From a virus (taxonomy: Duplodnaviria; Caudoviricetes): a DNA stretch of 55,205 nt. The first letter of the stretch is position 1. The number at the start of each line of letters is the position of its first letter. The notes beneath the pieces were generated by a model, which was not told the DNA's origin, did not search any database, and saw only the letters and a list, made by a program, of their open reading frames with translations. The stretch covers positions 1-55,205 of the IMG/VR virus record IMGVR_UViG_3300003660_000066. The stretch is one strand, 5' to 3'. A program made the position numbers and the translations under genes. Shown piece by piece: positions 11,173 to 45,888 of this stretch.

Positions 11173-11223
11173 TTTTTGCTCATTCGCTCTGGGCGAGCCC
11201 AACCGCTCATGAGGGCGCGCGCC

Positions 11224-12354
11224 TTAAAACCCGAAGTCGATCTCGCCGAGGATCGGCAGGTCGCCGGCCTCGAAAACTCTGTCTTCCTTCGGCGTGATCA
11301 TGCGGTGGCGCTGATAGCCGGGCGCCCTTGCAATGGCCTCGTCGATCCAGGCGACCGGCAGGCTGAACTGATTTTCGGCGGTGACGACCGGCACGCGCTC
11401 GTAGAACATCTTCTTCAGATTGTCCTGAATCGCGGCGCGCAGATAGGACGTGTCGCCGGCAAGGCCGCCGATCGAGATGAAGACCGGCACGGGGCGCGGC
11501 GCAACAACATAGACCCGCGCCGTCACCGGCCTTGCGTTGGTCGGCGAGCCGTCGGGCGCGGCCTCAAAACGCTGCGCGACCGCAAGGAGATCATAGGCGT
11601 TCGGCACGCCGTTGAGCCGCGTCTTGTCGAACAGCGGATAGACGGTGAGCGCCGCCGCGACGGCGTTGGCGTTGGTCGTCTTGAACGGCGAGACGAAGAC
11701 GCGCGTCACGCCGGCGACTTCGAGCGCCCATTGCTCATAGTCAGATCGCGAGCCGCCATGCGGCGGTTCGCGCTTGCGCTTGAGCACGCGGGCGCGCAGC
11801 TCGTCGTCGGATTCGATGTCGGCGCCGCCTCCGAAACCGTCAGGCCCGACATTGGCGTTCGCCGGCAGGCCTGGATAGGCGGCGTCGGCGGGGATCTCGA
11901 GCGGCGTTCCCGGCAGCAGATTGCCGCTCGCGCCGGGCTCGACAGCGCGCACTTCGACGCTCGTCAGCCCATTGGCGTCCGGAACCGCCGGCGCGAGGAA
12001 CATGATCACGGCGCCATTGGGGGCGATGACATGAAACTCCGCCGGGATCGTCGCGGCGGGCAGCGTCTGCTGAAAGCTGATCAGCCCCTGCGCCGGCGCG
12101 GCGGCCTTGCGCGAGATGCCATATTCGAAGGCGTGCCGATATTCGAGATGCTCGGCGTCGGCAGAGGAGGCGAAGATCTGACGATAGAGATAATGCGCGC
12201 GCTCATAGGCGGAGCCGAGCGACAGCGCGAAGCTGCGGCCGACGACCGAGATGTTATTGGGCTCGATCCACGCATCCGTTCCCGGCATGAAGGCGCGCGC
12301 GGAGTCGCGCCAGCGCGTCCAGATGTCTCTCAGCGACGGCGTGGTGAAGGGCAT
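11224..12354 (-). CDS. Baseplate J / Mu gp47-like protein
   Basis: GGADIESDDELRARV and PPHGGSRSDYEQWALEVAGVTR motifs. Confidence 0.92.
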   Translation of the reverse strand: MPFTTPSLRDIWTRWRDSARAFMPGTDAWIEPNNISVVGRSFALSLGSAYERAHYLYRQIFASSADAEHLEYRHAFEYGISRKAAAPAQGLISFQQTLPAATIPAEFHVIAPNGAVIMFLAPAVPDANGLTSVEVRAVEPGASGNLLPGTPLEIPADAAYPGLPANANVGPDGFGGGADIESDDELRARVLKRKREPPHGGSRSDYEQWALEVAGVTRVFVSPFKTTNANAVAAALTVYPLFDKTRLNGVPNAYDLLAVAQRFEAAPDGSPTNARPVTARVYVVAPRPVPVFISIGGLAGDTSYLRAAIQDNLKKMFYERVPVVTAENQFSLPVAWIDEAIARAPGYQRHRMITPKEDRVFEAGDLPILGEIDFGF

Positions 12355-12379
12355 GTCGCCTCTTTAAGCTTGCAGCGGC

Positions 12380-12967
12380 TCAGGCTTGCAGCGGACGCGC
12401 GACGCCGAGCGAGGCCTTCCAGAGCAGCGCGAAATTGACGCTCGCCGCGCGCTGGCCGGATTCGCGAAAGCCGTCGACGGTCATCTCCAGCCGGCCGAGT
12501 TCGTAATTCGGCGTCGCCGCGATCTTGAATTCGGCGACGGCGTTCTGATCGATCAGCGTCTGCAGCGCCTCATGCGCGAAGACGATCGAGAGATCGGCGA
12601 TCTCCTGCGTCAGCTCGCGGCGGCGCAGCTGCCAGAGGCGGGAGCCGAGCGGCGCGAGGTCTGGATCGATCGCGTCTCCCGCCCAGCCGCGCGGGTCGCC
12701 GGAGCCGTCCGGAATGAAATCATTCGTCTCGGCGCGGCGGTCCGACATCAGGCAGAGCAGAATGGCGGTATGCAGCGGCGCCCGCGCGCGCAGGCCGCCG
12801 GATGGATTGACCGGCGCGCCGCCAAAGTCGTCGGAGAAATCATTCGAGAAGTCGCCGGCGGTCGCCTTCTCCGGCGCCCAATCGCCGACGAAGCCGTCCC
12901 AGACCGTGTCCCAGAGATAGTTCGGCTCGGCCTTGATGCGCTCGACGATGTTGAGAGAGACGCTCAT
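12380..12967 (-). CDS. Mu gp46-like baseplate protein
   Basis: LHTAILLCLMSDRRA, RGWAGD, LGSRLWQLRR, EALQTLID motifs. Confidence 0.88.
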   Translation of the reverse strand: MSVSLNIVERIKAEPNYLWDTVWDGFVGDWAPEKATAGDFSNDFSDDFGGAPVNPSGGLRARAPLHTAILLCLMSDRRAETNDFIPDGSGDPRGWAGDAIDPDLAPLGSRLWQLRRRELTQEIADLSIVFAHEALQTLIDQNAVAEFKIAATPNYELGRLEMTVDGFRESGQRAASVNFALLWKASLGVARPLQA

Positions 12968-13013
12968 CTTTGCTCACTCGCTCTGCGCCAGCGCAACCGC
13001 TCGTGAGAGCCGG

Positions 13014-13583
13014 TCACTTCTTCGCATAGACGTTCGACGAATAGACGCCGCCTTCGAGCGCGACGCGGGCGCAGTCGCTCCCGTCAGAAGAGCCGAGATA
13101 GACCTTGCCTTCGGAGGCGACGAACACATCGCCCTTGGCGGTGATCTTCACCTTGCCCTTCTTCGTCTCGACGGTGACGTCTTTTTCCTTCACCGTGACG
13201 GAGAAGCCGCCCTTTTCGACGGTCGTCGCATGATCGCCCTTGGCGACCGCCGTTGCGACGCCATCGTCGGCGAGCGCGCCGACCGAATTGCCGGCCTTGT
13301 CGTAAAGCTTCGACTGGCCTTCCTTCAGCTTCGTCGGGCGGTGATCGTCATGCTCGCCGCCGAAAAACACCGAGCGGTTGCGCTCGCCGCCGAGCGAGCC
13401 GACGACGCCGGTCGAGCCTTTCGGCGGATGAGAGGAGAAGCCGAACGGCTGCGGCCGATAGACCTCCGAATGCTTCTCGCCGGCGAGGCCGTGATGCGTG
13501 ACGGTCTGCTGCTTGCCTTCGTCGTCGACCTCGAGCAGCTCGGCGAGCGCGAATTGCGGATGATAGCCGCGGGGCGGACGCAT
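13014..13583 (-). CDS. Baseplate spike, Mu gp45-like
   Basis: QPFGFSSHPP, LGGERN, RPTKLKEGQSKLYD motifs. Confidence 0.85.
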   Translation of the reverse strand: MRPPRGYHPQFALAELLEVDDEGKQQTVTHHGLAGEKHSEVYRPQPFGFSSHPPKGSTGVVGSLGGERNRSVFFGGEHDDHRPTKLKEGQSKLYDKAGNSVGALADDGVATAVAKGDHATTVEKGGFSVTVKEKDVTVETKKGKVKITAKGDVFVASEGKVYLGSSDGSDCARVALEGGVYSSNVYAKK

Positions 13584-13638
13584 TAAGAACTCCAGCGGTG
13601 AGGCGGTGCGCGCAGCCCGAAGACTGCGCGCGTGAGGA

Positions 13639-13914
13639 TCAATCGGCTTGCGTGAAGTCGAGATAGTATTCCTTGCCGACTTCGAAGCACTCGACCGCGG
13701 CGGCGCTGACGATGCTCAATTCAAGCTTCCCGCCCGGCGAAGCCTGCCAGAACTTCGTGTTTTCGTGATTGGGATCGCCATTTCCATAAACCGGCGACAT
13801 GACGACCGTGCGCGCTGGCGTCGGATAGGTCTGTTTTGCGTCAGGATCATAAACATGCGTGATCAGGTGAGTGATCTGGTCACAGCGAAACTTCGCTCGG
13901 ACAGTTGATTGCAT
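13639..13914 (-). CDS. Hypothetical protein inserted in the baseplate cluster
   Basis: VRAKFRC...ENTKFWQASPGG...GKEYYLDF; AGAAGG upstream. Confidence 0.7.
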   Translation of the reverse strand: MQSTVRAKFRCDQITHLITHVYDPDAKQTYPTPARTVVMSPVYGNGDPNHENTKFWQASPGGKLELSIVSAAAVECFEVGKEYYLDFTQAD

Positions 13915-13960
13915 CTGCCTTCTCCTTTTTTGCCCGGAAACCGCCGGACGCGGATTTGCG

Positions 13961-15013
13961 TTACTCCAGCCCCGTATCCCATGCGGCGTTCGACTTGCCC
14001 TTGCCGTCCTTGCCGCCGAGCGCCTGCGGATCGACGAGCGACAGCGTCGTCACCGTGCCTTCCGAGTCGTTCTGCAGGAATCGCAGATGGCGGATCGCCA
14101 TCACCTGCGAAATCTTCAAGCGTTTCGATTCGACGAAGACCAGCTTCTCCGGATCCCACAGATCGCCGTTCGAATCGCGCCAGCCCCTGACTTTGATCGT
14201 CGCCGTCGTCGCCCAGCCGGCCGCCCGGGCCACCTGCCATTTGGCGCGCTCCTTCAGGCGCTCGTCGTCGGTCTCGCCCTCGGCGAGAACGATCATCGGG
14301 CGATGCCGCTCGACGGTCTTGTCGCGCGAGACATATTCGAGCCGATGTGCCTTCTCGCCGGAGCCGAGCCGCTTCTGGCCGCGGGCGATGACGCGGTCGT
14401 GCTTGCCGCGCTCGGAGAGCTGCGCCGCCGCCTGGATGATGTTGACGCCTTCCTGAATGGCGCCGCCGTGCATGCCGAATTTGTCGGCCTTGGTGAGCTT
14501 CAGCCCACCGTCGGCCAGGCCGACGATCAGCGCGCCTTCCTGACGCGCAAGCGCTTCCAGTTCCTCGAAAACCGTCGAGCCCGGCGCGAGTCGCCAGACC
14601 GGGATTTCCTTCGACTTCAATTCGGATTGCAGATCAATCTTGAACGGCTTTAACAGATCCTTGCCGATCTCGTCGATCTTCTTTTTCTTCCATTCGCCGT
14701 TCTCATGCACGGCGGAGGAGTCGACCGCGTCCTTGGCCTTGGAGCGCCCGGAGATGACGGCGCGGTGATAATCGACGCCGAACTCCGGCGCATAATCGTC
14801 GACGAAGCCCTTGACCAGCAGCGAGCCTGAGGCGCGCACCGAGACTTCTGCGCCGGGGCGAAACGTCCAATCATCCTGAATGAGCTGATTTGGCTCCGCC
14901 GCGATGATCGAGAAGGCGCGGACGGCCTGCTGCGCGCCAGCTTCGACCGTCGCTTCCAGCCAGGTCGAATATTGCCGGCCACGCGTTTCGACTGTCACAA
15001 ACTCGAAAGCCAA
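13961..15013 (-). CDS. Baseplate hub, Mu gp44 (P)-like
   Basis: ISGRSKAKDAVDSS and GWRDSNGDLWDP motifs; position. Confidence 0.85.
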   Translation of the reverse strand: MAFEFVTVETRGRQYSTWLEATVEAGAQQAVRAFSIIAAEPNQLIQDDWTFRPGAEVSVRASGSLLVKGFVDDYAPEFGVDYHRAVISGRSKAKDAVDSSAVHENGEWKKKKIDEIGKDLLKPFKIDLQSELKSKEIPVWRLAPGSTVFEELEALARQEGALIVGLADGGLKLTKADKFGMHGGAIQEGVNIIQAAAQLSERGKHDRVIARGQKRLGSGEKAHRLEYVSRDKTVERHRPMIVLAEGETDDERLKERAKWQVARAAGWATTATIKVRGWRDSNGDLWDPEKLVFVESKRLKISQVMAIRHLRFLQNDSEGTVTTLSLVDPQALGGKDGKGKSNAAWDTGLE

Positions 15014-15018
15014 AGCCG

Positions 15019-16212
15019 CTACCTCGCAGCCGCCTCAAACACCGTCGGCATGAAGCATGGCGTCGCGACCCGGTTGCGCTGCGCCAGCTCCAGGCCTCTG
15101 TTCGGATCGCCATAGAGCCGATAGGCCAGCACATTCGACGGCAGCGACACGCCGAGCTCGACGATGATCACCGGCGCGAGGTCCGGGATGCGGCTCGACA
15201 GATGGCGCGCCGCAAGCCCATAGATGTCGTCGAAGGCCGCGCAGGCCATAGAGCCGAGTTCGGCGTAGACCGAAGTCACCGCGCCGGCCAGTTGGCCGAT
15301 CTTCGCCCGCGCGGCCTGCGCCGAGGCACGATCGAGATAGTCTGAGACCGCATAGAGCCGCGTGGCGTGCGCCGCGTAGAACACGGCGGCGGCGAGCGGC
15401 ACAATCGAGACGAGCGGCGAGATACCCCATTGGCCGAGCGAGGCCTGTCGATCCTTCAGCGCCTTGTCGGTCATGTCGACGAGCAGCTGCACCGGATCGC
15501 CGCCGGAAGCCTCTGTGACGATCGTATCGAGCGCGCCGCCGAGCGTCGCCAGCGCGCCCGCCGCATCGGCGGAATGGTCGGAGAGATCCGACCGCGCGTC
15601 GGCGATCGTCAGCCTGACGTCGCTGTCCTTATTCGCCGGCAACGGCGTTGCGGCGCGGAAACGCTCGATATCGTCGGCGACGACGATCGACGCTTCGCGC
15701 ATGTCCGCCAGGATGAAATCCGCCTGCGCGGAGGCGACGCCATCGCCCGGAAGGCTCAGCTGAACCGCATTGGCGATGGTCGCCGCAAGCCCCGCGGCCA
15801 TGAAGGCGAGGCCGGCTTCGCCGAGCCCCAGGGGAGCGGGCGCGAAGGCGCTGCCTTCCTCGACGAAAGTGACCTGAAAGCCGACATAATTGAGCGCCTG
15901 CCGGTTCCAGACCGGCCGCCCCTCGATCGCCCGCACGCGCAGCGCGCCGAACATCGGGATGACCAGCATGCCGGCGCCGCCCTGTTCGATGCGGGCGCGC
16001 AGCGCGGCGGAGTCCGTATCGGCGGTTTCGGAGACGAAATAGGCGGTGAGTTCGATCCGGCCGGCCTTGCGGCCCATGTCCTCGACGTCATGGCGCTCGG
16101 AGCCGGGATATTCATGAATGACGAGTCGGCGGCCGCGCTGCAGCTCCGAGGCGTCGACATAGAAGGACGCGCCGTCGAAATTCGCCTTTGGCCAGAGCCA
16201 GCTACGCGCCAT
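15019..16212 (-). CDS. Mu gp43 (N)-like 'DNA circularisation' tail protein
   Basis: ANFDGASFYV...GRRLVIHEYPG...VEDMGR N-terminus; LAYRLYGDPNR C-terminus. Confidence 0.9.
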   Translation of the reverse strand: MARSWLWPKANFDGASFYVDASELQRGRRLVIHEYPGSERHDVEDMGRKAGRIELTAYFVSETADTDSAALRARIEQGGAGMLVIPMFGALRVRAIEGRPVWNRQALNYVGFQVTFVEEGSAFAPAPLGLGEAGLAFMAAGLAATIANAVQLSLPGDGVASAQADFILADMREASIVVADDIERFRAATPLPANKDSDVRLTIADARSDLSDHSADAAGALATLGGALDTIVTEASGGDPVQLLVDMTDKALKDRQASLGQWGISPLVSIVPLAAAVFYAAHATRLYAVSDYLDRASAQAARAKIGQLAGAVTSVYAELGSMACAAFDDIYGLAARHLSSRIPDLAPVIIVELGVSLPSNVLAYRLYGDPNRGLELAQRNRVATPCFMPTVFEAAAR

Positions 16213-16370
16213 CAGTCGTCATTCCATTTGATCGGCGCGACCGTGAGGTCGCAGGGGCCGAGCGCGACGCGGAAATAGAGCTGCGCGGCGCCGGGAACGC
16301 CGAGGCGAACGAAAAGCGAGAGGACGCGCGCCAGAAGCCGGCGCGGCCGTGACAGGGCCAATCTGCGCAT
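16212..16370 (-). CDS. 52-aa basic hypothetical microprotein
   Basis: MRRLALSRPRRLLARVLSLFVRLGVPG...WNDD; GGAGG RBS and TGATG coupling to gp43. Confidence 0.55.
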   Translation of the reverse strand: MRRLALSRPRRLLARVLSLFVRLGVPGAAQLYFRVALGPCDLTVAPIKWNDD

Positions 16371-16372
16371 TG

Positions 16373-17647
16373 CTACCTCCCCGCCGTCGACGTTTGCGGA
16401 GCCGTCCCCTGCGGCGTTGCGCCGCCCGCGACGGCCCGCGGCGAGGCGCCGGTAGAGCCCGACGCGAGAAAGCGCTCGACCTGCGGGCCCCAGATGCGCC
16501 GCATGCGCTCGACATGCTGCGCGACGCTGCCGTTTCTGTCGCGCGCGCGATAGAGGCCGGGTCGGCCGGCAAGCACCGTCGAATAGGCGTCGAGCTGGCC
16601 CATGCCGGGCCTGTAGCCGCGACCGAGCAGAAAGCGCTCCGCGGAGCCGAGCTGCTCGCGGAACGTCTGCCGGTCATGCACGCCATATTCGCGCCGCTCG
16701 CGCGGCCCGAACTGGATCAGACCCATATAGCGGCCGCCCCTGCCGCCCCATTTCTTCGGGCTGAAAGAGCCGATCGTTTCATGGGCGATGATCTGCGCCA
16801 GATGCTCCGGCGGCATGCCGAGGCGTCCAGCGCTTTCTCTCAACGCGCGGGCGTTCTCGCCGGTGAAATATTCGTTTGGCCTCGCGCGGCGCGCGAGCGG
16901 CGCGCGCCCCGGCATGCGCGACGCCATCTGCTGAGCGAAGTCGCGCCGACGCTGCGCGGCGGCCGCTTCCCATTGCGCCGGCGTTCCGGTAGGCGGCGCG
17001 AAGGCGGCGCCGCGATGCATGATCCTGTTGCGCGCACTCCCAGCGGCTCGCTCCGGGCCAGCCCGACCGCTTGCCGAGTCGCCCGCAAGCGGTTGCGCTG
17101 GCGCAGAGCGAGCAGCAGAGGAAGCTGCATGCGGTGGAACCGGGACGGCGCTGCGCGGCGCCAGGCCGCGGGCGAAATCATGCGGGCCGACATCACGGGA
17201 GGTCGGCGTGTCCGGCAGGCGTCCGGAGACGCCGCGCGCAAAATCATGTGGGCCGACGCTTGAGCGGTTTTCTGCGAGCGGTCGAACCGTTTCGGAGCGA
17301 GCAGAAGAAGGCTTCGCCGGAGCGCCCGGCGCGGTTCGAGATGGCGTCGGCGCGGAGGCCGGCGCTTTTGGCGTCGTCGGACCTTCATGGCCGCGTCGAT
17401 GCGACGGCGGACGCTGAAGATCCGTAGGCGTCGCGCGATCATGTCCAATTGGCGAGAGCCGGTCGCCGCCGCGACTTTCGTGCAAATCCTGCACGAAATT
17501 CGGCGCATCGTCAGTCTCGCGCAGAGCCGCTATGTCCGCGCCAAATTCTGAAGACTGCCCCGCCGTCGCGCTCGACGATGAGCCGCCAGTTCCGTGCTGA
17601 CCAAACAGCAGCCTTGTTTCAAGCGTGACCGTGCGAGAAATCGCCAC
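16373..17647 (-). CDS. Lytic-transglycosylase-like protein with a low-complexity, repeat-rich N-terminus
   Basis: C-terminal LAQIIAHET and GLIQFG motifs; start uncertain (GTG). Confidence 0.6.
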   Translation of the reverse strand: MAISRTVTLETRLLFGQHGTGGSSSSATAGQSSEFGADIAALRETDDAPNFVQDLHESRGGDRLSPIGHDRATPTDLQRPPSHRRGHEGPTTPKAPASAPTPSRTAPGAPAKPSSARSETVRPLAENRSSVGPHDFARGVSGRLPDTPTSRDVGPHDFARGLAPRSAVPVPPHAASSAARSAPAQPLAGDSASGRAGPERAAGSARNRIMHRGAAFAPPTGTPAQWEAAAAQRRRDFAQQMASRMPGRAPLARRARPNEYFTGENARALRESAGRLGMPPEHLAQIIAHETIGSFSPKKWGGRGGRYMGLIQFGPRERREYGVHDRQTFREQLGSAERFLLGRGYRPGMGQLDAYSTVLAGRPGLYRARDRNGSVAQHVERMRRIWGPQVERFLASGSTGASPRAVAGGATPQGTAPQTSTAGR

Positions 17648-17656
17648 CGCGAAAGC

Positions 17657-19504
17657 TTAATCTTGCCGCATCGTCACGCCGACATCCGAGCGCAGTGCGC
17701 CCCGCGCATCGACGCGCTGCTCGATGCGCGCCAGGAAGTCAGGCGACGGCTCGATGATGACCCTGTTCGAGATCACCGCGTCGCCCTTCAATTCCGCTTC
17801 GATCTTGCCGTGCTGCCCGGCGCGGGCGAGCGAGCGATAGACAAGCGAGTCGAGACTGCTCCAAAGATCGCTGACGCCGCTCGCGCCAAATCCGAACTTG
17901 TTCGACCCGGAAGGGATCGACGGAAACCCCGTCATTGCGCTCTTTGGAACGGCGCTCTCGCCGAGATCCGACCCGAGCTGCATATTGATCTGCGGCCGGC
18001 TGTTGTCGACAAATCTCGACCAGAGCGAGGGCGCGGGCGCGCCCTGATCATTGACGCCGTTCAAAAACAGCGCGCGGTTCTTCGCGCCAAAGGGCACAGG
18101 CGACTTCTCCTGAAGCCGCTCGATCGGCTTGCCGTCTGCGCCGGCAAGGAAGCCCGTCTCTTTCGCCGTCTCGAACGCTTTGAGCGTCTTTTCGAGCTGC
18201 GCATTAATCGACGGCAGCGCCCAGCGCGTCAGCCTGTCGCCGACCTCAGACGTCAGCGCGCCGAACCGCTCAAGATGTTTGGACGTCGTTTCGAGATCGA
18301 CGGCGAGGCTCTTGGAGAGCGAGCCCTCGGCCCCGCCGCCGGACAGAGCGGTTTTCAGCCGCTTCATTTCCGGCAGCGCCGATTTGATGCGCAGGAATTC
18401 GTCCCACCATTCCTTGCCGCCGAGACCAACGGCGACGCTCACCGCATCCCTGCTCTTTCCCAACCGCTCGAGCACGTTAAAGATCGTGCCCATCGCGTCT
18501 TTCTTCATGCCGGCTTCGACGCCCGTCGCCGACAGTCCCAGCTTCTTGAGCGCGTCCGGCGCGCCCTTTTGCGCCGACGCCGTGCGCAGACGCGAGGACA
18601 ATTGCCCGAAGGCGCGCGACGAGACGTCTTCCTGCATGCCGACCGAACGCATCGCGGTCAGCGCGATCATCGCATCGTCATAGGCGACGCCGGCTTCTTT
18701 CGCGCCGGCGCTGGTCTTCGCCCACATCGCCGAGATGTCTTTTTCGGCGGCGGCGGAGATGTCGCCGAGGTAATTCACCTTGTTGGCGTAAGTCTCAAGC
18801 TCCTTGTTGGTCCAGCCGGTCTGCGCCTTGATTTCGGCGAGGGTCTGCGCCGCCTCTTTCGCGCCGATGTCCCAGGCCGTCGAGGCCTTCGCGGCCAGCA
18901 TCATGAATTCGGAAAGGTCCTTATAGGCGATGCCGGATTGGCCGGCTTGCGCGGCGAGCGCCGCCATCTCTTCGCGCGAAATGCCGACCTTGCGCGCCAC
19001 CTTGCCGATCATCGCCTCGACATCGGCCCATGTCGCGCCGGCTTCGAGATTGACCTTCTTTTTGACGTCGGCCATCGCCTTGTCGAAAGAGATCGCCTGG
19101 CGAACGCCATAGGCCGTCGCGCCGCCGAGCGCGAGGCCGGAGACAGCCGCGCCGCCCATGCCGAGCATCATGCCGGCGGTTCCCGGCGCTGCGGCGGCAG
19201 CGAAATCGGAAAGGCCCGAGCGAATGCTCGCCATTTTCTGATTGATGGCGGAGACCTTTGAGCCGACCGCAGCGCCAGCAAGGGGAATGCCCCATCCCGC
19301 CGACATGCGCTGCGCGATGCTCGCGTGCAGCTGCGCAGAGCGCCCGACGGCCGACATGCCGCGCGCGACGCTGTCCATGCGGCGCGACGCCGAGGCGGCG
19401 TTCTGCTCCAGCCCGCGCAGCTTCTGCGCGACGGCGGCGAATGTATTGCCGGTCCTGTCCTGCGCCGAGATGACGGCGCGCGTCTCGATCGTCTTGGTGG
19501 CCAT
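17657..19504 (-). CDS. Tail tape measure protein
   Basis: ISAQDRTG N-terminus; AISFDKAMADVKK TP901-type core; GGAGG RBS. Confidence 0.92.
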   Translation of the reverse strand: MATKTIETRAVISAQDRTGNTFAAVAQKLRGLEQNAASASRRMDSVARGMSAVGRSAQLHASIAQRMSAGWGIPLAGAAVGSKVSAINQKMASIRSGLSDFAAAAAPGTAGMMLGMGGAAVSGLALGGATAYGVRQAISFDKAMADVKKKVNLEAGATWADVEAMIGKVARKVGISREEMAALAAQAGQSGIAYKDLSEFMMLAAKASTAWDIGAKEAAQTLAEIKAQTGWTNKELETYANKVNYLGDISAAAEKDISAMWAKTSAGAKEAGVAYDDAMIALTAMRSVGMQEDVSSRAFGQLSSRLRTASAQKGAPDALKKLGLSATGVEAGMKKDAMGTIFNVLERLGKSRDAVSVAVGLGGKEWWDEFLRIKSALPEMKRLKTALSGGGAEGSLSKSLAVDLETTSKHLERFGALTSEVGDRLTRWALPSINAQLEKTLKAFETAKETGFLAGADGKPIERLQEKSPVPFGAKNRALFLNGVNDQGAPAPSLWSRFVDNSRPQINMQLGSDLGESAVPKSAMTGFPSIPSGSNKFGFGASGVSDLWSSLDSLVYRSLARAGQHGKIEAELKGDAVISNRVIIEPSPDFLARIEQRVDARGALRSDVGVTMRQD

Positions 19505-19522
19505 GCGATTCCTCCGGAGCTG

Positions 19523-19702
19523 CTATCGACGGCGCTTCACATCGTCGAGAAACTTTATCGCCTGCGTCGTCCAGAATTGCAGACGCGCCAGCGTCATTGA
19601 TTCGACCGACCAGACGTCTAAGCCGAAGCGGAAGATGAGGACTCTGGCGATGGCGTCGATTGATTCTGTTGCTTGAGCGGCGCCATCGCCTCTTGGAAAA
19701 AA
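19523..19702 (-). CDS. -1 frameshift extension of the tail chaperone (GpE'/gpGT-like)
   Basis: Slippery T TTT TTC at 19702-19696; the -1 frame reads ...FRFGLDVWSVESMTLARLQFWTTQA...RRR* and ends 19 nt before the tape measure gene. Confidence 0.75.
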   Translation of the reverse strand, partial: FFPRGDGAAQATESIDAIARVLIFRFGLDVWSVESMTLARLQFWTTQAIKFLDDVKRRR

Positions 19703-19971
19703 TCCAGCACAGCCTCACGCAGGGCCATCGCATCGCGAAGATTGAGGAATTCCATGAAATTCGGGTCGCAATCCGCGAGCTTCTCGATCCACGCTTGAAC
19801 GACGGAATCAGCGATCTGTTCGAACGCGCCGCCGCCCTTCACATAGACATATGTCGACGGCGCGCCGATCTCGAAGAGTTCGCCGTAGATTGGATCGCGC
19901 AGCGTGATCGACGTGATCTTCACGCCGTTCGGCCCGGCGATGGGCGATGAAAGCTGGATGGTTTTTGGCAT
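19618..19971 (-). CDS. Tail assembly chaperone
   Basis: MPKTIQLSSPI...ITSITLRDP...LDFF; between tube and tape measure genes. Confidence 0.85.
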   Translation of the reverse strand: MPKTIQLSSPIAGPNGVKITSITLRDPIYGELFEIGAPSTYVYVKGGGAFEQIADSVVQAWIEKLADCDPNFMEFLNLRDAMALREAVLDFFQEAMAPLKQQNQSTPSPESSSSASA

Positions 19972-20030
19972 TATTGCCCCGCTTATACCCATTCGCTCCG
20001 GGCCGGCCCGACCGCGAATGCGATAACGAA

Positions 20031-20408
20031 CTACTGCTTGGTCCGCAGATAGGCGTCTGTCGAAATCGAGAGACCGGAGACCTCGCCCGTCTCGAAATTG
20101 ATGGCTGGCTCGCCGATCACCTTGGCGTTCGAGAATTGATGCAGCACGCCGCGATCGATCTCCAGCACGGTGACGTTGTGGAAATCGCGCATGAAGGCTT
20201 CGTTGAAGCGATCGATCTCTTTCGGGCCGACGTCGAAGGTGAATTCCGCCGTCGCCGGCTTGTTCATCGTCCCGAAGCCGACGCTTTGGTCGTGGTTGGG
20301 ATAGACTGTGTTCTCCTGCCGCGCAGGCCGGATCACCGGCGCCGTGCGCGGAATATAGCTGACGCCGTCGATGGTGACGCGCGTGCGGCCGCCTGCCTGG
20401 TGGCTCAT
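20031..20408 (-). CDS. Tail tube protein (Mu gpM-like)
   Basis: AGGRTRVTIDG start; 125 aa; follows the sheath. Confidence 0.8.
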   Translation of the reverse strand: MSHQAGGRTRVTIDGVSYIPRTAPVIRPARQENTVYPNHDQSVGFGTMNKPATAEFTFDVGPKEIDRFNEAFMRDFHNVTVLEIDRGVLHQFSNAKVIGEPAINFETGEVSGLSISTDAYLRTKQ

Positions 20409-20472
20409 GGCTCAAATTCCTTTTTCATGGTGCGAAGAGGAAGCTGCTTTATCGCGCGATATGGAGGTCGCG

Positions 20473-20631: not shown

Positions 20632-20639
20632 TTTTGCAC

Positions 20640-22519: not shown

Positions 22520-22571
22520 TTTGTCTCCACTTCGCGCGAGCGGTCGAACTGGTTCGGAGCGAGAGCGCAAA

Positions 22572-23333
22572 TCACTGCGGGATATTCCAGGTCGCGATCT
22601 GAGGATCGTCAGGATGTTCGGATGGCGGAACCTGCGGCGGCGGCGGAATAGTCGCGACCATCTCCTCGAAGGCGGGCCGCGCCGGCGCGGTCAGGAGATC
22701 TGCGAGACGCGCGGCCTTTTCGCGCTCGGGCGAGTCGCTCGGCCAGGCAAGCGCGACGCTCTTCCATGGCTCCGGCAGTCGATCGAGGCCCGACAGCGAA
22801 GCGTCGAAGATCGGGATTTCAGGATCGGCGATCTCTATCGAATAGGTGACGTAGCGCAGCGCGAATTTCGCCGAGGACTTCGGATCGGTGAAGCGGATCG
22901 CTGTCTTTTTCGACGTCTGCTTGGTCAGCAGCCGAAAGGCGACGCTCGCCGGCTCGACGCGCCGAAACAGGGCGAGCTCCGCCTGGCCTTCGATCACGTC
23001 GAGCGTCATTTCGAGGTGATCGTCGGTCAGCGGCGCATCGACGACATAGGCCTCGTCGTTTTCCGACTTGAACAGGCCTTGCATGGCGATCTCGAGCACA
23101 AGCTCAATTTCGGGCCGGAAGGGCGGGCCGCCATTAGCCGAGGACAGCGCCTCGCCGGAATCCTGCTCGGTATAGACGCCGATCGAGCCCGCGACGTCGG
23201 CAAGATTCGGCATGAAGGTTTCAGGATCGAGCGCGGCGATGCGCGAGTCGAACACCTGCTCGCCGACCAGCGTCATGTTGCGCAGCGCCGCGCAGGCGGC
23301 AAGACGCAGAAAGGAACGGCCGAACGCGCTCAT
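22572..23333 (-). CDS. Putative tail completion/terminator protein
   Basis: TLVGEQVFDSRI and IGVYTEQD motifs; start placed at MSAFGRSF. Confidence 0.6.
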   Translation of the reverse strand: MSAFGRSFLRLAACAALRNMTLVGEQVFDSRIAALDPETFMPNLADVAGSIGVYTEQDSGEALSSANGGPPFRPEIELVLEIAMQGLFKSENDEAYVVDAPLTDDHLEMTLDVIEGQAELALFRRVEPASVAFRLLTKQTSKKTAIRFTDPKSSAKFALRYVTYSIEIADPEIPIFDASLSGLDRLPEPWKSVALAWPSDSPEREKAARLADLLTAPARPAFEEMVATIPPPPQVPPSEHPDDPQIATWNIPQ

Positions 23334-23412
23334 GACTCTCGCGAGCGGCTGGAGTATGGCGCCGATGTTTCGAGCGCCAAGAAGCAATCACCCAGAGCGA
23401 GCGAGCAAAGAG

Positions 23413-23811
23413 TCATTGGACCCCCAGTCTCACGACGCGCAGCTTGACGCGGGCGAGGCCGTCCTCAAGCACGCCGGAGACTTCATAGACCGCGCCGTCA
23501 GAGACGCGGATGAAGCGGTCCTTGGCGCGCGCCCGATAGGGCAGCGCCGCAGCGGCGACGTCGATCTGCGCTTCGCTCGCGCCATGCTGAGAGGCGACGC
23601 CCTTGGACATGCCGGAGGCGTTGCGCTCGCCGATCGGATCGAACAACTGCGCCGACTCGGTCAGCGCCGCGACGAGCGCGACTTGCGCGCGATCCGGATC
23701 TGCGACGAGCCGGCCGCCGACCTGCGCCATCGGATGAAAGAGGAAGTCCGCGCCGAAGCAATCATCGATGTTCGACGCGGCCGCCGCCCATTCGTCTGAG
23801 AAGCGCGACAT
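23413..23811 (-). CDS. Head-tail joining protein (gpFII-like)
   Basis: Position after the capsid; KDRFIR...YEV...DG C-terminal beta motif. Confidence 0.6.
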   Translation of the reverse strand: MSRFSDEWAAAASNIDDCFGADFLFHPMAQVGGRLVADPDRAQVALVAALTESAQLFDPIGERNASGMSKGVASQHGASEAQIDVAAAALPYRARAKDRFIRVSDGAVYEVSGVLEDGLARVKLRVVRLGVQ

Positions 23812-33142: not shown

Positions 33143-33232
33143 GCGCGTTTTCTCCAGATGATCCTTTTGCGCTTCGCTCCGGGACAGCCCGACCGCTCGC
33201 GACATCGAAAAACGCAGCACGCAACCCGCAAC

Positions 33233-36330: not shown

Positions 36331-36893
36331 TATGGCGACCGCCTCATCTTCGCGTAAATGTCGTAAATTACCCGCATCTCTTCTATCGGAAAGTCCAAGA
36401 TCACATCGATTTGCGCTCTGCCGATCGTCTGTCGCTTCGCAAAATACTGGGAGATGATGATGTGGACGGCGGCGTGATGTGTTGGGCATAGCCAGACATG
36501 ATCGTGCAGCGCCTCGCGAATGCCGATGTCGTATTGAACCCCAAGCGGCGTTAGATGATGCGCTTGAGCGACTGAGGCATATTTCCCGCAGACCGCGCAG
36601 GGGGCGCGCTGTGACGGCGTGAAGTCGCGCCTAGCAGCCGCGATCCACTCCTCTTTGGCGCATTGAGACGGAATCTCCCCCCGCGCCTCCATTTCATTGA
36701 GAAATTCCCCGGCCTTCCGCTCGGCGCGCATGCGCAGCTCGATTGCGTCTGCGAGGAGCGCGCTGTCCTTTGCGGACCGCGCTAGGCGCTCAATCGCCGC
36801 GGCTTCGTCAATGACCGCTTTTGCATCGAAAACGTTTTTCGCCTCGACGAGCGCCTGCCGCGCAGCCTCATATTTGATCAGCTGCGCCGTCAA
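36330..36893 (-). CDS. HNH nuclease fused to the same N-terminal domain as the MTase
   Basis: TTG start; CAVCG...AHH...VWLCPTHHAAVH. Confidence 0.7.
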   Translation of the reverse strand: MTAQLIKYEAARQALVEAKNVFDAKAVIDEAAAIERLARSAKDSALLADAIELRMRAERKAGEFLNEMEARGEIPSQCAKEEWIAAARRDFTPSQRAPCAVCGKYASVAQAHHLTPLGVQYDIGIREALHDHVWLCPTHHAAVHIIISQYFAKRQTIGRAQIDVILDFPIEEMRVIYDIYAKMRRSP

Positions 36894-37548: not shown

Positions 37549-38520
37549 TCACGCTTCCGCCGCAAGCCCGCGCGCCGCGCGCCATTTCCGGCGCATCTCG
37601 GCGCGGTCCGCCGGCGAGTCGTAGGCGACCGCGGCGCAATGCGGGCAATAAGGCTTGCCCGCCTCAACCGGCGCGCCGCAGAAGCCGAAGGATTCGCCAC
37701 GCGGATCGCCGAGTGGCCATTTGCAATCCCCTTCGCGCAGCTCGAGCAGCGTCAGTCGACGCGGCTCCCATTCGACGAGCGCGACAGGCTCGACGATTTC
37801 CACCTCGCATTGCGCCTTCGGCGCGCAGCCGTTGGTCTGTGGCGCGCCCTGACGAGCGCGTGCGGAAGCTCGCGGCTTCCGCGCCGCTGCGGCGCGCGGC
37901 GAGTCGCGCCTCGGTCGCCCTGTCGGCGCCGTGAAGGACAGGCCAAGCCTGCGCGCCATGCCGATCACGGCGTTTCTGGTGAAGAGCCGCCCGAATTTCT
38001 CCGAGAGCGCGACAGCAGTCGCGGCGCCGGATAGCTTCTGGACGACGGCGGCCTCGCGCAATGCGGCGAGGTGTTCGTCATCCCATGCACGCTTTTTCTT
38101 GACGATGTCGCGCAGGCCTGTCGCTGCCGCGATGACGTCTCCGGCCCGCCAGCCGCGCCGGAACGCGACCTGCTGAACCATGTTGCGATTGAACGGCCGA
38201 CCGAACGCGGCGGAAAGCTGCGCAGCCGCGGCGGCCGGGCCCATGCCCTTGACGACGACCGCGTCATAGAGCGCCGCAAGCGCCTCGTCAGTCCAGATCT
38301 TGTCCGGCTGTTCGAGCAACCCGCGCTGGCGCAGCTTCGCAAGCACGCAGGCGACATAGTAATAATTCGAGCCCGTCTGTTCGGAGATCTGCTTTTGCGA
38401 GACGCCTTCCTTGGCGAGGCGCAGGATCGTGGCCGTCTGCGTTCCCTCTCTCGGGACGATGGGCGCGCCATCTCCTTCGCCGCGAGCCCCAATGACGGAT
38501 AAATCGCAACTCATGCTCAT
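37549..38520 (-). CDS. gcrA: GcrA-family regulator with a duplicated N-domain
   Basis: WTDEALAAL...FNRNMV and WDDEHLAAL...TRNAVIGMARRLGL; C-terminal LLELREGDCKWPLGDP...FCG...PYCPHC. Confidence 0.85.
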   Translation of the reverse strand: MSMSCDLSVIGARGEGDGAPIVPREGTQTATILRLAKEGVSQKQISEQTGSNYYYVACVLAKLRQRGLLEQPDKIWTDEALAALYDAVVVKGMGPAAAAAQLSAAFGRPFNRNMVQQVAFRRGWRAGDVIAAATGLRDIVKKKRAWDDEHLAALREAAVVQKLSGAATAVALSEKFGRLFTRNAVIGMARRLGLSFTAPTGRPRRDSPRAAAARKPRASARARQGAPQTNGCAPKAQCEVEIVEPVALVEWEPRRLTLLELREGDCKWPLGDPRGESFGFCGAPVEAGKPYCPHCAAVAYDSPADRAEMRRKWRAARGLAAEA

Positions 38521-38920: not shown

Positions 38921-39855
38921 CAGCGCAGCCTCACGACATTGCCGGGCGCTTCGCCGGTGACGGCCGTCTGTGGCGCGGCGTCGATCTCATCGGCGCGCGG
39001 AATCGGCCATGGCAAAGCACGCACGGCGGAATCTTTCTCGCCGAGCGACCAGAGCCGCGGCTTCCCGACGTCTGGATGCGGATGAATAGTTGCGAGCGCG
39101 CGCGCGATCGTGGCGTCGCGAGCCATGTCGTAACCGAGCTTGGGACCAAGCACGAATTGCCTCTTCAAGCCTTCGCATAGCTTACGGATAAGCGCCGGCG
39201 ATGCGGTCTCAAGAGACTCGCCGAGCGCGCGCAGTGCGTCGGGCGGCAGGCCGAATGGCGCAAGATAGCGCGCCGTGATCAGTTCTCGCTCGCGTTGCCC
39301 AGGCAACTCGAGCGTGAGATGGATGTCGAACCGCCGCCAGATTGCCTGGTCGATATGTGCGCCGTAATTCGTCGCGGCGATGATGAAGCCCTTGTGCTGT
39401 TCGATGCGCTGTAGAAGCGTGTTGACTTCTTCGTTACGGGAATCGTCGGCAGCCTGCTCGCTGCGGCGGCGCTGGCGCGAAAGAGCGTCGAACTCATCGA
39501 TGAAGAGAACGATTGGATCGTCTTCATCCGAGGCAAGATCGAATAATTCACCGATCCTCTGGCCCGTCTCGCCGACATATTTCGAGATCATGCGCTCCGG
39601 CCGCACCGCGAGCATGGGCAGACCAAGTCGCGCGGCGAGGTGATGCGCCAACGTCGTCTTGCCGACGCCTGGCTTGCCGTCGAACATAGCGCGCTTTCGC
39701 GCCGAAATGCCGACCTCAGCGAGATCGGCTTCCGCCCAGATCTCCTCGAGCCATTCCTGCAGCGCATCGCGCATGCCGCGCGCAAGTATCGGCTCTTGCG
39801 CTTCCTGCGGCTCGAACACGTCGCCAAAGCGCGAAATGTCGTAACTGCGCGCCAT
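38920..39855 (-). CDS. AAA+ ATPase
   Basis: GKPGVGKT, LFIDEFD, AATN, DQAIWRRFD. Confidence 0.92.
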   Translation of the reverse strand: MARSYDISRFGDVFEPQEAQEPILARGMRDALQEWLEEIWAEADLAEVGISARKRAMFDGKPGVGKTTLAHHLAARLGLPMLAVRPERMISKYVGETGQRIGELFDLASDEDDPIVLFIDEFDALSRQRRRSEQAADDSRNEEVNTLLQRIEQHKGFIIAATNYGAHIDQAIWRRFDIHLTLELPGQRERELITARYLAPFGLPPDALRALGESLETASPALIRKLCEGLKRQFVLGPKLGYDMARDATIARALATIHPHPDVGKPRLWSLGEKDSAVRALPWPIPRADEIDAAPQTAVTGEAPGNVVRLR

Positions 39856-40529
39856 TATTCAGGCCCAAATCCGCCGTTTCCAGACCCGACACGCCAGCCC
39901 TTATCCCACCGCCGGCGACGATCGTCTCCGAAGGGAAACGGGTTTTTGATGATCGGCACATTGTCGCGCGCGGCCTGCGCGCCGAGAGATTCGGCTTCGT
40001 CCGGCGAGACGTTCGGGACATCCTGCGTCGCGCGGTTACGGCGGCCAGATGCCGCGACGCCAGAAGTTGGCGCTGGACGTTCGACAACCTCTTGCGACGT
40101 CACCGCTCCGTCTTTGTCGCGCGTTAGCCGCACCGGAGCGCCGCCGGCTTCGATGACGATCGAACCGTTTTCTGGAACGAAATTCTTGAGCGCTTCGATG
40201 ACGGACTCTCTGGCGGCGATGTCGACGCCGATGCGGTTGGCCGCGCGGAACAATGGCGGCTCCGTCACCATGCCGAGCGCGGAGAGATACATGTCGGCAA
40301 GCGCTTGCGCTTCATGATAGTCGGCGGGTTTCCTTGTCCTCACCTTGATGCAGTGACGAAGAATCTTCGTGTCAAATCCAGCGGCCTTGGCTTCCACCAT
40401 CACCAGTTTTTGATCTTCGGAAATCTCTTTCTTTTCGACTTCGAGCCGCTCATAGCGCTCGACATAGGATCTGATCTGCTCACCACTGACTGAGTTTTTT
40501 CCCGTCACGGTTGGATTCGTGTCGCTCAT
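39855..40529 (-). CDS. gapR: GapR/DUF2312-family DNA-binding protein with a C-terminal extension
   Basis: QIRSYVERYERLEVEKK...EAKAAGFDTKILR...YLSALGM. Confidence 0.82.
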   Translation of the reverse strand: MSDTNPTVTGKNSVSGEQIRSYVERYERLEVEKKEISEDQKLVMVEAKAAGFDTKILRHCIKVRTRKPADYHEAQALADMYLSALGMVTEPPLFRAANRIGVDIAARESVIEALKNFVPENGSIVIEAGGAPVRLTRDKDGAVTSQEVVERPAPTSGVAASGRRNRATQDVPNVSPDEAESLGAQAARDNVPIIKNPFPFGDDRRRRWDKGWRVGSGNGGFGPE

Positions 40530-40571
40530 GTCTGCCGAACCTCTCATGTCATTCCGCCCCATGTTCGTTGC

Positions 40572-41937: not shown

Positions 41938-42224
41938 CGCCGTTCCCCATGTGCTTCATTGCTCACATGAGAGAGACGCCACACACTCACTCGGATGATT
42001 GGACGCTGATCGGCCTGCCAGCCGCGCGCGTCCTGGAACAACTGCTCAACACTACGAACAAGGAACGCGGGGCGGCGAAAGGTTTCGCGTCCGCCGCCCC
42101 AACCAGGTCCGCCTACAAACGACGCGCCGGGATTGCTTCGGCTCGCTCCCGCCGGCGAGGCAAAACGCGCCAACCATGGGAACTAGCCAAGGAGCAGGCG
42201 CGCCCGAACTGAATTCATCGCCCC

Positions 42225-42316
42225 AAAAAACGCCGGAGGCCGAAGCCCCCAGCAGTTAAGGGAGGAAACGCCCAAGGAGGGCTCAACGAAGCGCTGCGGC
42301 TCTCAACGCAACGCCA
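42225..42316 (-). ncRNA. MmgR/alpha-r8 (suhB motif)-like small RNA
   Basis: Hairpin 1, GCCC-TCCTT-GGGC hairpin, TTTCCTCCCT core, then terminator hairpin and T6; 5' end approximate. Confidence 0.7.
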
Positions 42317-43338: not shown

Positions 43339-43340
43339 CA

Positions 43341-44628: not shown

Positions 44629-44841
44629 ATGTCATTCCTTCAATCGATCCTGACCGAGAAGCAGCTCGCCAATTTCATTTTCTTCGGCCTTTGGCTCGGG
44701 CCGCTGACGATCGGCGGAATTATCGCGCAGATCTATCTGCAGATCGTGGAGGAGAAGGCGCGCCTGGCGCAGCTGCGCGGCCTGCGCGCGCTGGCGAGAT
44801 CGCGCCCCGCGCCGCTCCGCCGCGACGTCGGCTTCCTCTAA
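44629..44841 (+). CDS. Small single-TM protein
   Basis: FIFFGLWLGPLTIGGIIAQI; GGAG RBS. Confidence 0.65.
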   Translation: MSFLQSILTEKQLANFIFFGLWLGPLTIGGIIAQIYLQIVEEKARLAQLRGLRALARSRPAPLRRDVGFL

Positions 44842-44854
44842 AGGGGCGCGCGCC

Positions 44855-45109
44855 ATGACGCAGCAGCGACGCCGCGGCTTCGCCGCGATGAGCCCCGAGC
44901 GCCAGCGCGAACTCGCCGCCAAGGGCGGCAAGAGCGTGCCGGACGACAAGCGCACGTTCTCGCTGAACCGCGATCTCGCCGCCGAGGCGGGGCGCAAGGG
45001 CGGCAAGGCGCATCGCGCCAATCGTTCCTTCAACGATCGCGCCTTCGCGACAGAGTGCGCCCGCAAGGGCGGACTGGCGAAGCGCGGCGCCGGCAAGGGA
45101 AGCGCGTGA
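44855..45109 (+). CDS. KGG-repeat stress-induced-type protein
   Basis: RRGFAAMSPERQRELAAKGG, AGRKGG, ARKGG. Confidence 0.88.
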   Translation: MTQQRRRGFAAMSPERQRELAAKGGKSVPDDKRTFSLNRDLAAEAGRKGGKAHRANRSFNDRAFATECARKGGLAKRGAGKGSA

Positions 45110-45393
45110 TGGCCTTCAAAGCGCGACCAGCCTTTGAGCTCGAATACCGCCATGATCGGCGCAAGCATCGTCACCGCTGCCGGTGCTGCAACAAAATCGT
45201 TGAGGCGGGCGAGCGCGTTTTGATGGTTCCCAAGCGCAATGGGACGTGGGTGATCCACATCACCTGCGCAGACAAGCCTCACAGCGCCAACGGCACGTGG
45301 CGCGATGCCTTTGAATCATGGGGAACCGAGCGGTTGCGCAAATGCGGCTACCCCATTCCAGAGCACCCGTATTCAATGGTTGGCCGATCATGA
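45109..45393 (+). CDS. Zn-finger-like hypothetical protein
   Basis: CRCC...HITC; TGATG coupling. Confidence 0.6.
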   Translation: MAFKARPAFELEYRHDRRKHRHRCRCCNKIVEAGERVLMVPKRNGTWVIHITCADKPHSANGTWRDAFESWGTERLRKCGYPIPEHPYSMVGRS

Positions 45394-45539
45394 ATGCGAC
45401 CCGCTTCCATCTCGCGATCATCGTCGTCATGGCGCTCGCCTATGCGGCCGACTCGCTCTGGGTCAAGCCGCGCCGTCGTCATCTCGATTTCCTCTCCTCG
45501 CGCGATTGCGCATTTCAAGGAAGGTGTTGGATCAGATGA
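45390..45539 (+). CDS. 49-aa N-terminal-TM microprotein
   Basis: MNATRFHLAIIVVMALAYAADSLWV; ATGA overlaps at both ends. Confidence 0.55.
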   Translation: MNATRFHLAIIVVMALAYAADSLWVKPRRRHLDFLSSRDCAFQGRCWIR

Positions 45540-45628
45540 AAAACATCGACGCCATTCTCGTCGCCATCCTGCCGATCGCCGTCGCAGCGTTCGGACTCTA
45601 CTCCGCCTTTCATGGAGCGAACCCGTGA
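45536..45628 (+). CDS. 30-aa single-TM microprotein
   Basis: MKNIDAILVAILPIAVAAFGLYSAFHGANP; coupled at both ends. Confidence 0.55.
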   Translation: MKNIDAILVAILPIAVAAFGLYSAFHGANP

Positions 45629-45888
45629 GCGCGGGAGACGCTGCGAGCGGTTGGGCTGGCCCAGAGCGAGCAGCCGACAGATCACGCGAGTTCAACCGCG
45701 CCGTGATCGCCGCTTTCGGCCTGGTCCGCTCGTTCTGGCTGATCGAAGCCGGGCCCCGCGCGGTGATGATCGCCTGCCGGCAGGCGCATCCGCGCAGCGC
45801 CGCCGAGCGCGCCGCGCTCGAACATCTTCACGCGCTCGCGGGTCGCCTCGCGCCGCTGGAGCCGCCGGCGCTGTTCGGCCGTCGCTAG
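45625..45888 (+). CDS. Hypothetical protein starting with a copy of the structured repeat
   Basis: GTG start overlapping the previous stop; ASGWAGPERAA is encoded by the repeat. Confidence 0.5.
   Translation: MSAGDAASGWAGPERAADRSREFNRAVIAAFGLVRSFWLIEAGPRAVMIACRQAHPRSAAERAALEHLHALAGRLAPLEPPALFGRR

Follow-up and report, generated by a model that had tools for sequence, protein, structure and literature searches.

Repetitive extragenic palindromic (REP) repeats are usually viewed as chromosomal passengers tied to REP-associated tyrosine transposases (RAYTs), and as rare in phages and alphaproteobacteria. The REP and REPIN elements of Enterobacteria and Pseudomonas are short, GC-rich imperfect palindromes, mainly extragenic and often located just past stop codons; they occur singly, in clusters or as inverted doublets that form one long hairpin, their presence or absence varies among relatives, and a folded single strand is their presumed substrate. 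The palindromic elements of Rickettsia (RPEs), which are known only from that genus, measure approximately 100-150 bp, lie in frame within protein genes and are translated. Here we describe a hairpin element that occurs ten times in IMG/VR record IMGVR_UViG_3300003660_000066 (the window, i.e., the whole stretch of DNA analysed, 55,205 bp with 64% G+C), with all ten copies located within the bounds of a myovirus-type prophage.

The element possesses all of the REP and REPIN characteristics listed above, the inverted doublet being located at 17038-17121. With the RPEs it shares the habit of a palindromic alphaproteobacterial repeat that inserts in frame, adding 23 codons to a tail protein with an SLT domain, yet it differs from them in having a unit of ~42 nt, in residing mainly at cistron junctions and in having as carriers both phages and genomes that are related to a Rhodoblastus metagenome-assembled genome and to other lineages. 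Unlike REPs, it lacks a visible GTAG/CGTC tag and an association with RAYTs, its clusters are mainly head-to-tail rather than alternating, its conserved part is an internal loop between stems of free sequence, it is dense in phage genomes, and it reaches at most 32 copies in a bacterium, against the 'usually >100' quoted for REPs in PMC2817692. The Br-REP1 and Br-REP2 repeats of Bradyrhizobium, as presented in the relevant part of PMC5082802, are also REP-type stem-loops, in this case in 3' untranslated regions and between convergent genes of Hyphomicrobiales, with an abundance that differs strongly between related species. Their consensus sequences are unrelated to that of our element, and that account places them at 50-200 sites per genome and reports none in phages.

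We favour, at a probability of roughly 0.6, the reading that the ten sites are copies of a small, non-autonomous mobile hairpin repeat of the REP/REPIN/RPE kind, with any regulatory role being secondary. Of the two options put forward in the original prediction, this corresponds to the new REP-like mobile class, and it is favoured by the empty sites in relatives, the in-frame insertion in a tail gene, the occurrence in unrelated phages and chromosomal arrays, and the absence of a matching Rfam family, each of which is detailed below.

The repeat unit is roughly 42 nt long (the element itself being about 35-45 nt) and runs from a T-rich lead-in through an outer stem of 4-5 bp, TCGCTC, an inner hairpin of 4-5 bp and ACCGCTC to the return arm of the outer stem. 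Both stems are free in sequence, while TCGCTC and ACCGCTC are fixed; the internal loop had been called nearly fixed, and the exceptions are indeed confined to CTT in place of CTC in the copies with cores at 17048 and 17087, and CGA in that at 19993. The interior of the loop can form two central G-C pairs, flanked on one strand by pyrimidine-pyrimidine mismatches; on the purine strand the mismatches beside these G-C pairs would be G-A, as had been suggested from the sequence. The information content of the flanks spans about -11 to +30 from the core start, with a T-rich stretch from -11 to -6 and a signal that fades after +30, and the unit length deduced from these flanks agrees with the ~42-nt period of the chromosomal arrays described below. 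All nine canonical cores were recovered at precisely the coordinates and on the strands first reported. A loose pattern (TCGCTC-N12-ACCGC, at most one mismatch) yields 19 matches in the window against 5.4 expected, a number reached by none of 100 shuffles; its ten exact matches comprise the nine elements and a site at 34846-34868, which is devoid of a hairpin. A covariance model (R1), built from an alignment of 47 copies (A1), assigns the nine canonical copies 39-59 bits, with the next best site in the window scoring 16 bits.

The closest sampled relatives of the prophage (loci L169 to L172) share 60-63% identity in the J-like protein and keep the gene order. Empty sites, which the original prediction had proposed to look for, are indeed present there, since four junctions that bear copies in the window are tight in these relatives, being either stop/start overlaps or a 7-nt gap. 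In front of the W-like gene, L169, L171 and L172 read ...CTATGAGC..., an ATGA stop/start overlap, whereas the window reads TGA, a 46-nt filler with copy 2, and then ATGAGC. At the junction of the J-like and wedge genes, L169 has TGATG and L172 an 11-nt overlap, compared to a 51-nt filler with copy 1 in the window, while at the junction between the gene at 22572 and the DUF2635 gene an ATGA overlap in L171 faces a 52-nt filler with copy 7. Finally, the tube/chaperone junction is a 7-nt gap in L171 and TAATG in L170, and extends to 57 nt with copy 6 in the window, where TAATG is kept at the start codon. The covariance model found no match in the loci of 52 relatives (L169 to L220), nor in any of the four whole records of the closest relatives (two of which are 81-83% complete), and with its filters off the best score in L169 to L172 was 13 bits. 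The element accounts for the odd gaps of 46-57 nt in an otherwise tightly packed tail operon. At three of the four junctions the stop triplet stands on both sides of the filler (TGA...ATGA twice, TAG...TAATG), and this repeated triplet could be a short target-site duplication.

The provirus at L170 carries fillers of another kind, of ~200 nt each (9290-9490 and 11108-11311), at the same two baseplate junctions that hold copies 1 and 2 in the window; a long inverted repeat is present in one, and in the other there may be a small open reading frame (ORF). Both junctions appear to be hot spots of small insertion events. L170 also possesses a 1.6-kb insert between its sheath and tube genes (270-1860).

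The SLT-domain tail gene (16373-17647, minus strand) holds copies 3, 4 and 5, all of which keep the frame open. Its best homologue, P0001 (347 aa, a hypothetical or SLT-domain protein of Methylocystis rosea according to its sources), aligns from end to end with 70% identity, and its gap of exactly 23 residues coincides with the 17048/17087 doublet, where the other four homologues are gapped as well. In-frame insertion into an ORF, as is typical of RPEs, is therefore observed at this doublet, and the element accounts for the extra residues of the protein. Around copy 5 the homologue alignment is not clean, so insertion is not demonstrated for that copy. We also considered 17018-17647 as non-coding DNA, given a third-position G+C content (GC3) of 0.62 over the first 630 nt of the gene, and rejected this on account of the full-length homologue; the segment is a low-complexity coding linker.

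Two further observations concern this gene. The encoded protein contains the motif GPHDFARG twice (17140-17260); one copy is conserved in all aligned homologues, and the second, together with ~18 extra residues, is missing from P0001. Furthermore, the tape measure ORF ends with a TAA at 17657-17659 and the SLT-domain gene resumes in the same frame three codons on (GTG at 17647), the corresponding genes of L169 being in different frames.

Covariation of both stems around a constant loop, a central part of the original prediction, is borne out, including by tests that are free of selection bias. When the IMG/VR database was searched with a pattern that fixed the loops and two stem positions only, 50 matches were obtained in 44 stretches; a perfect 5-bp inner stem is present in 24 of them (~1% by calculated chance), and 11 more have four of the five pairs. 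Of 90 distinct copies selected by core and inner stem alone, 43 have an outer stem with at least four of five Watson-Crick pairs; when the partners were shuffled 200 times, this number averaged 6.1 and was never above 15. The seed alignment was picked for having stems, which makes its covariation count partly circular; in it, 88.7% of cells are paired (56.9% when shuffled), double-change cells number 148 (51 when shuffled), and a shift of the partner by a single column lowers the paired share to 27.0% and 29.1%. Unrelated phages carry the same types of inner stem, such as TGCGC-CA-GCGCA and CGGGC-CA-GCCCG. In the loop itself, the double variant TCCCTC...ACCGGTC bears a hairpin in two of its seven matches, both in one phage, while the uncompensated single variants occur in a hairpin context in none of three and none of seven cases; this compensated change in the central loop pairs is a hint of loop covariation, in one lineage only.

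With both stems covarying and the loop invariant, the results support a structure-selected element that is read as a folded single strand. The minimum-energy fold is nested in most of the seven single copies folded, including the two mid-loop G-C pairs, and for the inverted pair (17030-17130) the fold is a single long hairpin of -68.1 kcal/mol (z = -5.3). As to which strand folds, wobble asymmetry gave no consistent signal: the fifth pair of the inner stem (21 A-C against 1 G-T) would favour the purine strand, mainly in one clade, and the outer stems (30 G-T against 17 A-C) point in the opposite direction.

The element is not restricted to the window. Five other, unrelated viral records contain 3, 3, 3, 5 and 6 copies in 34-50 kb, one of these records having terminal repeats and being rated complete. 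In these phages, using crude GC3-based gene calls, many copies lie in gaps of ~50 nt between co-directional genes and others inside ORFs, among them a ParB-like ORF that bears three copies and a primase ORF. On the bacterial side, a 4.0-Mb alphaproteobacterial chromosome (G001) gives 32 pattern matches against none for the reversed control, five further bacterial genomes have 3-17 copies each, and at least five copies are present in nine of the 41 genomes nearest G001. Beyond these the element is scarce. In a sample of 200 genomes of the class, only G001 exceeds three matches, the rest being close to control counts; among 120 further genomes of the family only two do so, both of which are known carriers; and in 350 genomes of the order only two show a single match to the full 25-nt pattern.

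In chromosomes, two to four units are often arrayed head-to-tail at a period of 38-49 nt (mainly 42), separated by spacers of 7-17 nt, and these arrays are located after or between ordinary genes such as those for acetyl-CoA hydrolase, polyhydroxybutyrate depolymerase and polysaccharide deacetylase. One locus of G001 (L133, 1967-2117) holds four identical units with an exact 42-nt period, equal to 14 codons. They occupy an open frame close to the 5' end of an ORF of 757 codons, the later part of which matches GATase1_like; a translated array and a true start downstream of it are both possible.

The density of the element is ~190 per Mb in the prophage, ~60-130 per Mb in the other phages, a figure somewhat inflated by the fact that these records were found via the pattern, and 8 per Mb in the densest bacterial genome (at most 32 per 4 Mb). 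The MtnA-type gene flanking the prophage is just 57-62% identical (69% for one partial fragment) to those of the 41 genomes around G001, which places the host outside this set; the bacterial densities are thus not those of the true host.

Several known classes of hairpin and repeat were considered. The core sites R'' and R' of integron attC sites are RYYYAAC and GTTRRRY; an attC site was rejected, as the outer stems are free in sequence and no conserved AAC/GTT is present. A K-turn and a CRISPR repeat were rejected on sequence, and an intrinsic terminator on the position of the T-run, which precedes the hairpin on the pyrimidine strand, an A-run following it on the other. At the gathering threshold, Rfam recognised just a tRNA and suhB/mmgR in the window, and permissive scans of 16950-17400 and of the L133 array returned weak microRNA-type or SymR matches far below threshold; the element thus has no counterpart among Rfam families. 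The motif description was likewise absent from Rfam and from the literature searched, the scope of which left subscription journals and supplements outside. BLAST, which is poorly suited to this motif, gave partial, non-significant matches when one 45-nt copy was compared to named phages and plasmids, the best being a Tistrella plasmid (73% cover, E = 0.06). No GTAG/CGTC end tag, as given for REPs in PMC3733652, stands beside either stem in the 47-sequence alignment, where the invariant columns are those of the loop. REP-like clustering is represented by the single inverted doublet of the window and the tandem arrays of chromosomes, at 3-32 copies per bacterial genome, the true host not being among them. 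Miniature inverted-repeat transposable elements are marked by conserved terminal inverted repeats and a target-site duplication of fixed length; here the outer stems vary among copies, and the stop triplet is repeated at three of four junctions, which selection may explain.

Our proposal for how these observations fit together is as follows. The element would spread by insertion, and would have entered the prophage at seven or more separate places after its split from the nearest sampled relatives. Most insertions would have occurred right after stop codons, at junctions that were originally stop/start overlaps, and one inverted doublet would have entered a tail gene in frame. The invariant loop, presented on a folded single strand, may be the recognition site of a putative trans-acting protein that is probably encoded by the host and probably acts on DNA. 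Compensatory stem changes and the recurrence of the same inner-stem types in unrelated phages argue for recognition of the folded strand by such a presumably host-encoded protein, and the mixed orientation relative to transcription suggests DNA as the likelier substrate. Only those insertions that leave the operon translatable would survive, as is suggested by the post-stop positions and the Shine-Dalgarno (SD)-like, A-rich sequence before the next ATG. The hairpins would be transcribed as intercistronic structures 2-10 nt past stops, and may affect mRNA stability, decay, ribosome release or translational coupling as a by-product.

A bolder version of this proposal is offered tentatively. It would make the repeat a new structure-addressed element living mainly in temperate phages: an enzyme other than Y1/RAYT might read a mismatch-flanked motif of two base pairs between arbitrary stems on a folded single strand, and paste the ~42-nt unit, or an inverted doublet, beside stop codons or into coding linkers so that operons remain unbroken, the chromosomal arrays being footprints or reservoirs. 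In either case, several unrelated phages carry a hairpin family with no RAYT link, at a density at least 20-fold above that of every bacterial genome searched. The system is compact, and a 35-nt oligonucleotide ligand could serve to find the recognising protein; it could also reveal how such elements move and whether hairpins between translationally coupled phage genes alter expression.

A number of points weigh against a mobile repeat. No transposase or other mobilising gene was found: among the 38 window ORFs scanned, a subset of the total, the families searched gave no transposase match. The link to a RAYT/HUH transposase that the original prediction had raised was checked in bacteria and was not found either, as Y1_Tnp does not track the element. 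It is present in four of nine element-rich genomes and ten of 32 other relatives, and across 14 Y1_Tnp loci (44 kb) no covariance model match exceeds 11.5 bits. According to the sections of PMC6006769 that concern them, RAYT genes are normally flanked by their own REPs, and alphaproteobacteria have none or few tnpAY1 genes. Furthermore, the window copies differ in both stems, which excludes a recent burst from one master copy, and long-term selection on structure, suggestive of function, accounts equally well for these differences. The outer stems are not conserved terminal repeats and the boundaries of a mobile unit are consequently undefined, while single copies fold ordinarily for their composition (z between -1.8 and +1.7). 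The repeated stop triplet could also be expected from selection keeping both genes intact, and with relatives sharing just 60-63% protein identity, loss in these relatives is formally possible. Finally, the density in the prophage (about 10 per 52 kb), at least 20 times that of every bacterial genome searched, is as compatible with a phage-linked role as with a selfish element that thrives in phages.

The strongest competitor is a functional phage RNA signal, in which the hairpins would act in intercistronic processing, stability or coupling, or as nut-like antitermination sites working with the NusG paralogue, and so set the stoichiometry of tail proteins; we regard this as unlikely. T7 RNase III sites and the nut sites of lambda (boxA-boxB) occur in one transcript orientation and are shared by relatives; they are either few, as with nut, or linked to promoters. 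The element is like them in being an intercistronic hairpin with two stems around a conserved internal loop, and the loop starts with CGCTC, which we take to resemble the start of lambda boxA. Seven of the ten copies lie at cistron junctions, and six start 2-10 nt past a stop codon (copy 10, at 45645, being included only if ORF 45682-45891 is real). In addition, the purine-orientation copies place an A-rich spacer and an SD-like arm ahead of the next ATG, the stems are kept paired through compensatory change, and the density of the element in phages exceeds that in every bacterial genome searched. Ribosome stalling by REPs located within 15 nt of a stop codon has been described (PMC5082802, in a passage citing Liang et al. 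2015).

Against these stand the orientations and the relatives. Unlike the T7 and lambda signals, the element is found in both orientations, as first noted: the junction copies of the window appear in mRNA as four purine and two pyrimidine strands, and the copies of the other phages, by crude gene calls, as roughly 11 pyrimidine and 3 purine strands. The same junctions are tight overlaps in relatives that keep the gene order, and these relatives have no copies at all; three copies are inside an ORF, chromosomal tandem arrays lie between housekeeping genes, and no Rfam family matches. The search for a shared partner is also unfavourable, with a NusG-like gene in just two of the five other element-bearing phages and no window ORF having homologues in more than two of these five records (by tblastn, which distant homologues would escape). 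The alternative of the original prediction, a phage signal tuning late-operon stoichiometry or antitermination, is accordingly disfavoured: positive support for it did not emerge, and no phage protein, the NusG paralogue included, is common to all carriers.

The reading as double-stranded DNA sites, with the direct repeat CGCTC-N14-CGCTC as the target of a regulator or nucleoid protein, is very unlikely. It draws on the fixed spacing of the two loop halves, which are direct CGCTC repeats, on their orientation-independent scatter over the genome, and on the GcrA-like, GapR-like, HTH_36 and S24 repressor genes of the phage. A precedent was proposed for Cluster O mycobacteriophages, where the part of PMC4351075 dealing with repeats describes more than 30 copies per genome of a 17-bp palindrome, between and within ORFs. 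The likeness lies in tens of small, dyad-symmetric copies across a phage genome, between ORFs or near their ends; in structure the two are opposites, since the Cluster O palindrome has invariant arms and a variable centre, in the manner of a duplex site, whereas here the arms covary and the unpaired parts are invariant, and the copies described here are demonstrably insertions, missing from relatives. A duplex site moreover gives no reason for stems of free sequence to stay complementary, and at the tblastn level neither a shared phage-encoded partner nor a DNA-binding protein common to all element-bearing phages was found. Least likely of all is a decoy, in which solitary phage copies would imitate a host repeat array and titrate a host factor, as RNA anti-CRISPRs do with phage-borne solitary repeat units mimicking CRISPR repeats (in the account of PMC10651486): it matches the tandem arrays of bacteria and the dispersed single units of phages, but those arrays, with their ~42-nt period and 7-17-nt spacers, are not CRISPR arrays, and insertion in frame in a tail gene and at coupled junctions is unexpected of a selected decoy.

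The ten copies are listed in Table 1. The placement originally described stood for the six copies in short gaps before starts and for those at 17048, 17087 and 17276, which are in frame in a real gene; it did not stand for the copy at 45645, which had also been put inside an ORF. All ORFs overlapping that copy have a GC3 of at most 0.67 and none is coding-like, and the copy is probably intergenic.

Table 1. Positions, strands, covariance model scores and surroundings of the ten copies of the hairpin element in the window.
Copy	Extent	Core	Strand	Score (bits)	Surroundings and remarks
1	11174..11218	11184-11208	+	51.6	51-nt gap between J-like gene 11224-12354 (minus) and wedge gene (ATG at 11172); mRNA carries purine strand
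2	12968..13012	12978-13002	+	56	46-nt insert between gene 13014-13583 and W-like gene 12380-12967; mRNA carries purine strand
3	17038..17082	17048-17072	+	48.6	Half of inverted doublet, in frame in SLT-domain gene
4	17077..17121	17087-17111	-	49.1	Other half of REPIN-like inverted doublet, in frame
5	17266..17310	17276-17300	-	48.6	In frame, low-complexity linker of SLT-domain gene
6	19983..20027	19993-20017	+	41.6	57-nt gap between tail tube gene 20031-20408 and chaperone gene (ATG at 19973); loop ends CGA
7	22528..22572	22538-22562	-	48.2	52-nt gap between gene 22572-23387 and DUF2635 gene (ATG at 22519); mRNA carries pyrimidine strand
Variant	23334..23414		-		Between gene 23413-23811 and gene 22572-23387; TCGCTC...GCCGCTC, outer stem CTCGC/GCGAG, 45-nt inner arm
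9	33164..33208	33174-33198	+	39	Between HTH_36 gene 33233-34402 and NusG-like gene (start near 33142)
10	45635..45679	45645-45669	-	58.7	Early region

The long-armed variant, first reported at 23343-23400, proved to be genuine, having the same flanks, loops and outer stem as the canonical copies. On the minus strand it reads as the T-rich flank, CTCGC, TCGCTC, the 45-nt arm, GCCGCTC and GCGAG; its nested fold has -29.4 kcal/mol, and the covariance model gives just 11.9 bits, over part of the variant. In three purine-orientation junction copies the 3' outer arm is ATGAG, GTGAG or ATGGG (11209-11213, 13003-13007 on the complement, and 19988-19992), and in each case the gene downstream begins with codons similar to this arm. 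Copies 1 and 2 have TGAGCAAA before the ATG in common, and their outer stems differ by a compensated change from T-A to C-G. GANTC (CcrM) sites are not enriched beside the window copies, being nearby only for the doublet and the variant.

The boundaries of the prophage are well marked. A perfect direct repeat of 49 nt forms attL (522-570) and attR (52591-52639), the repeat is identical to the 3' portion of a minus-strand tRNA gene (52594-52666), and an integrase gene is located at 51370-52518; from these features we conclude that this is a ~52-kb prophage integrated in a tRNA gene. Host DNA occupies ~0.5 kb on its left and ~2.5 kb on its right, the right flank encoding a class II aldolase and an IF-2B/MtnA-type protein. 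The prophage genes are mainly on the minus strand and include a tail and baseplate set (baseplate wedge, J-like, W-like, tape measure, tube and sheath) and a regulatory and replication set (NusG-like, HTH_36, MT-A70, GcrA-like, AAA ATPase, GapR-like, T5orf172, S24 repressor, Rv2179c-type exonuclease and DUF5131). A megablast search of 10000-24000 against named phages gave no match.

Three of these genes, MT-A70 (the family of CcrM-type methyltransferases; 35302-36489), GcrA-like (37549-38520) and GapR-like (39855-40562), are homologues of alphaproteobacterial cell-cycle and nucleoid factors. The suhB/mmgR match (RF00519) also falls inside the prophage, at 42217-42289 on the minus strand, with 42.8 bits against a gathering score of 41; an alphaproteobacterial small RNA family on a phage would be unusual. 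Finally, the neighbouring minus-strand genes 6517-7953 and 7957-9015 have segments of 128-138 nt in common, with 71-73% identity (7550-7943 against 8606-9002), and judging by this similarity a tail-fibre-like gene appears to have been duplicated in tandem.

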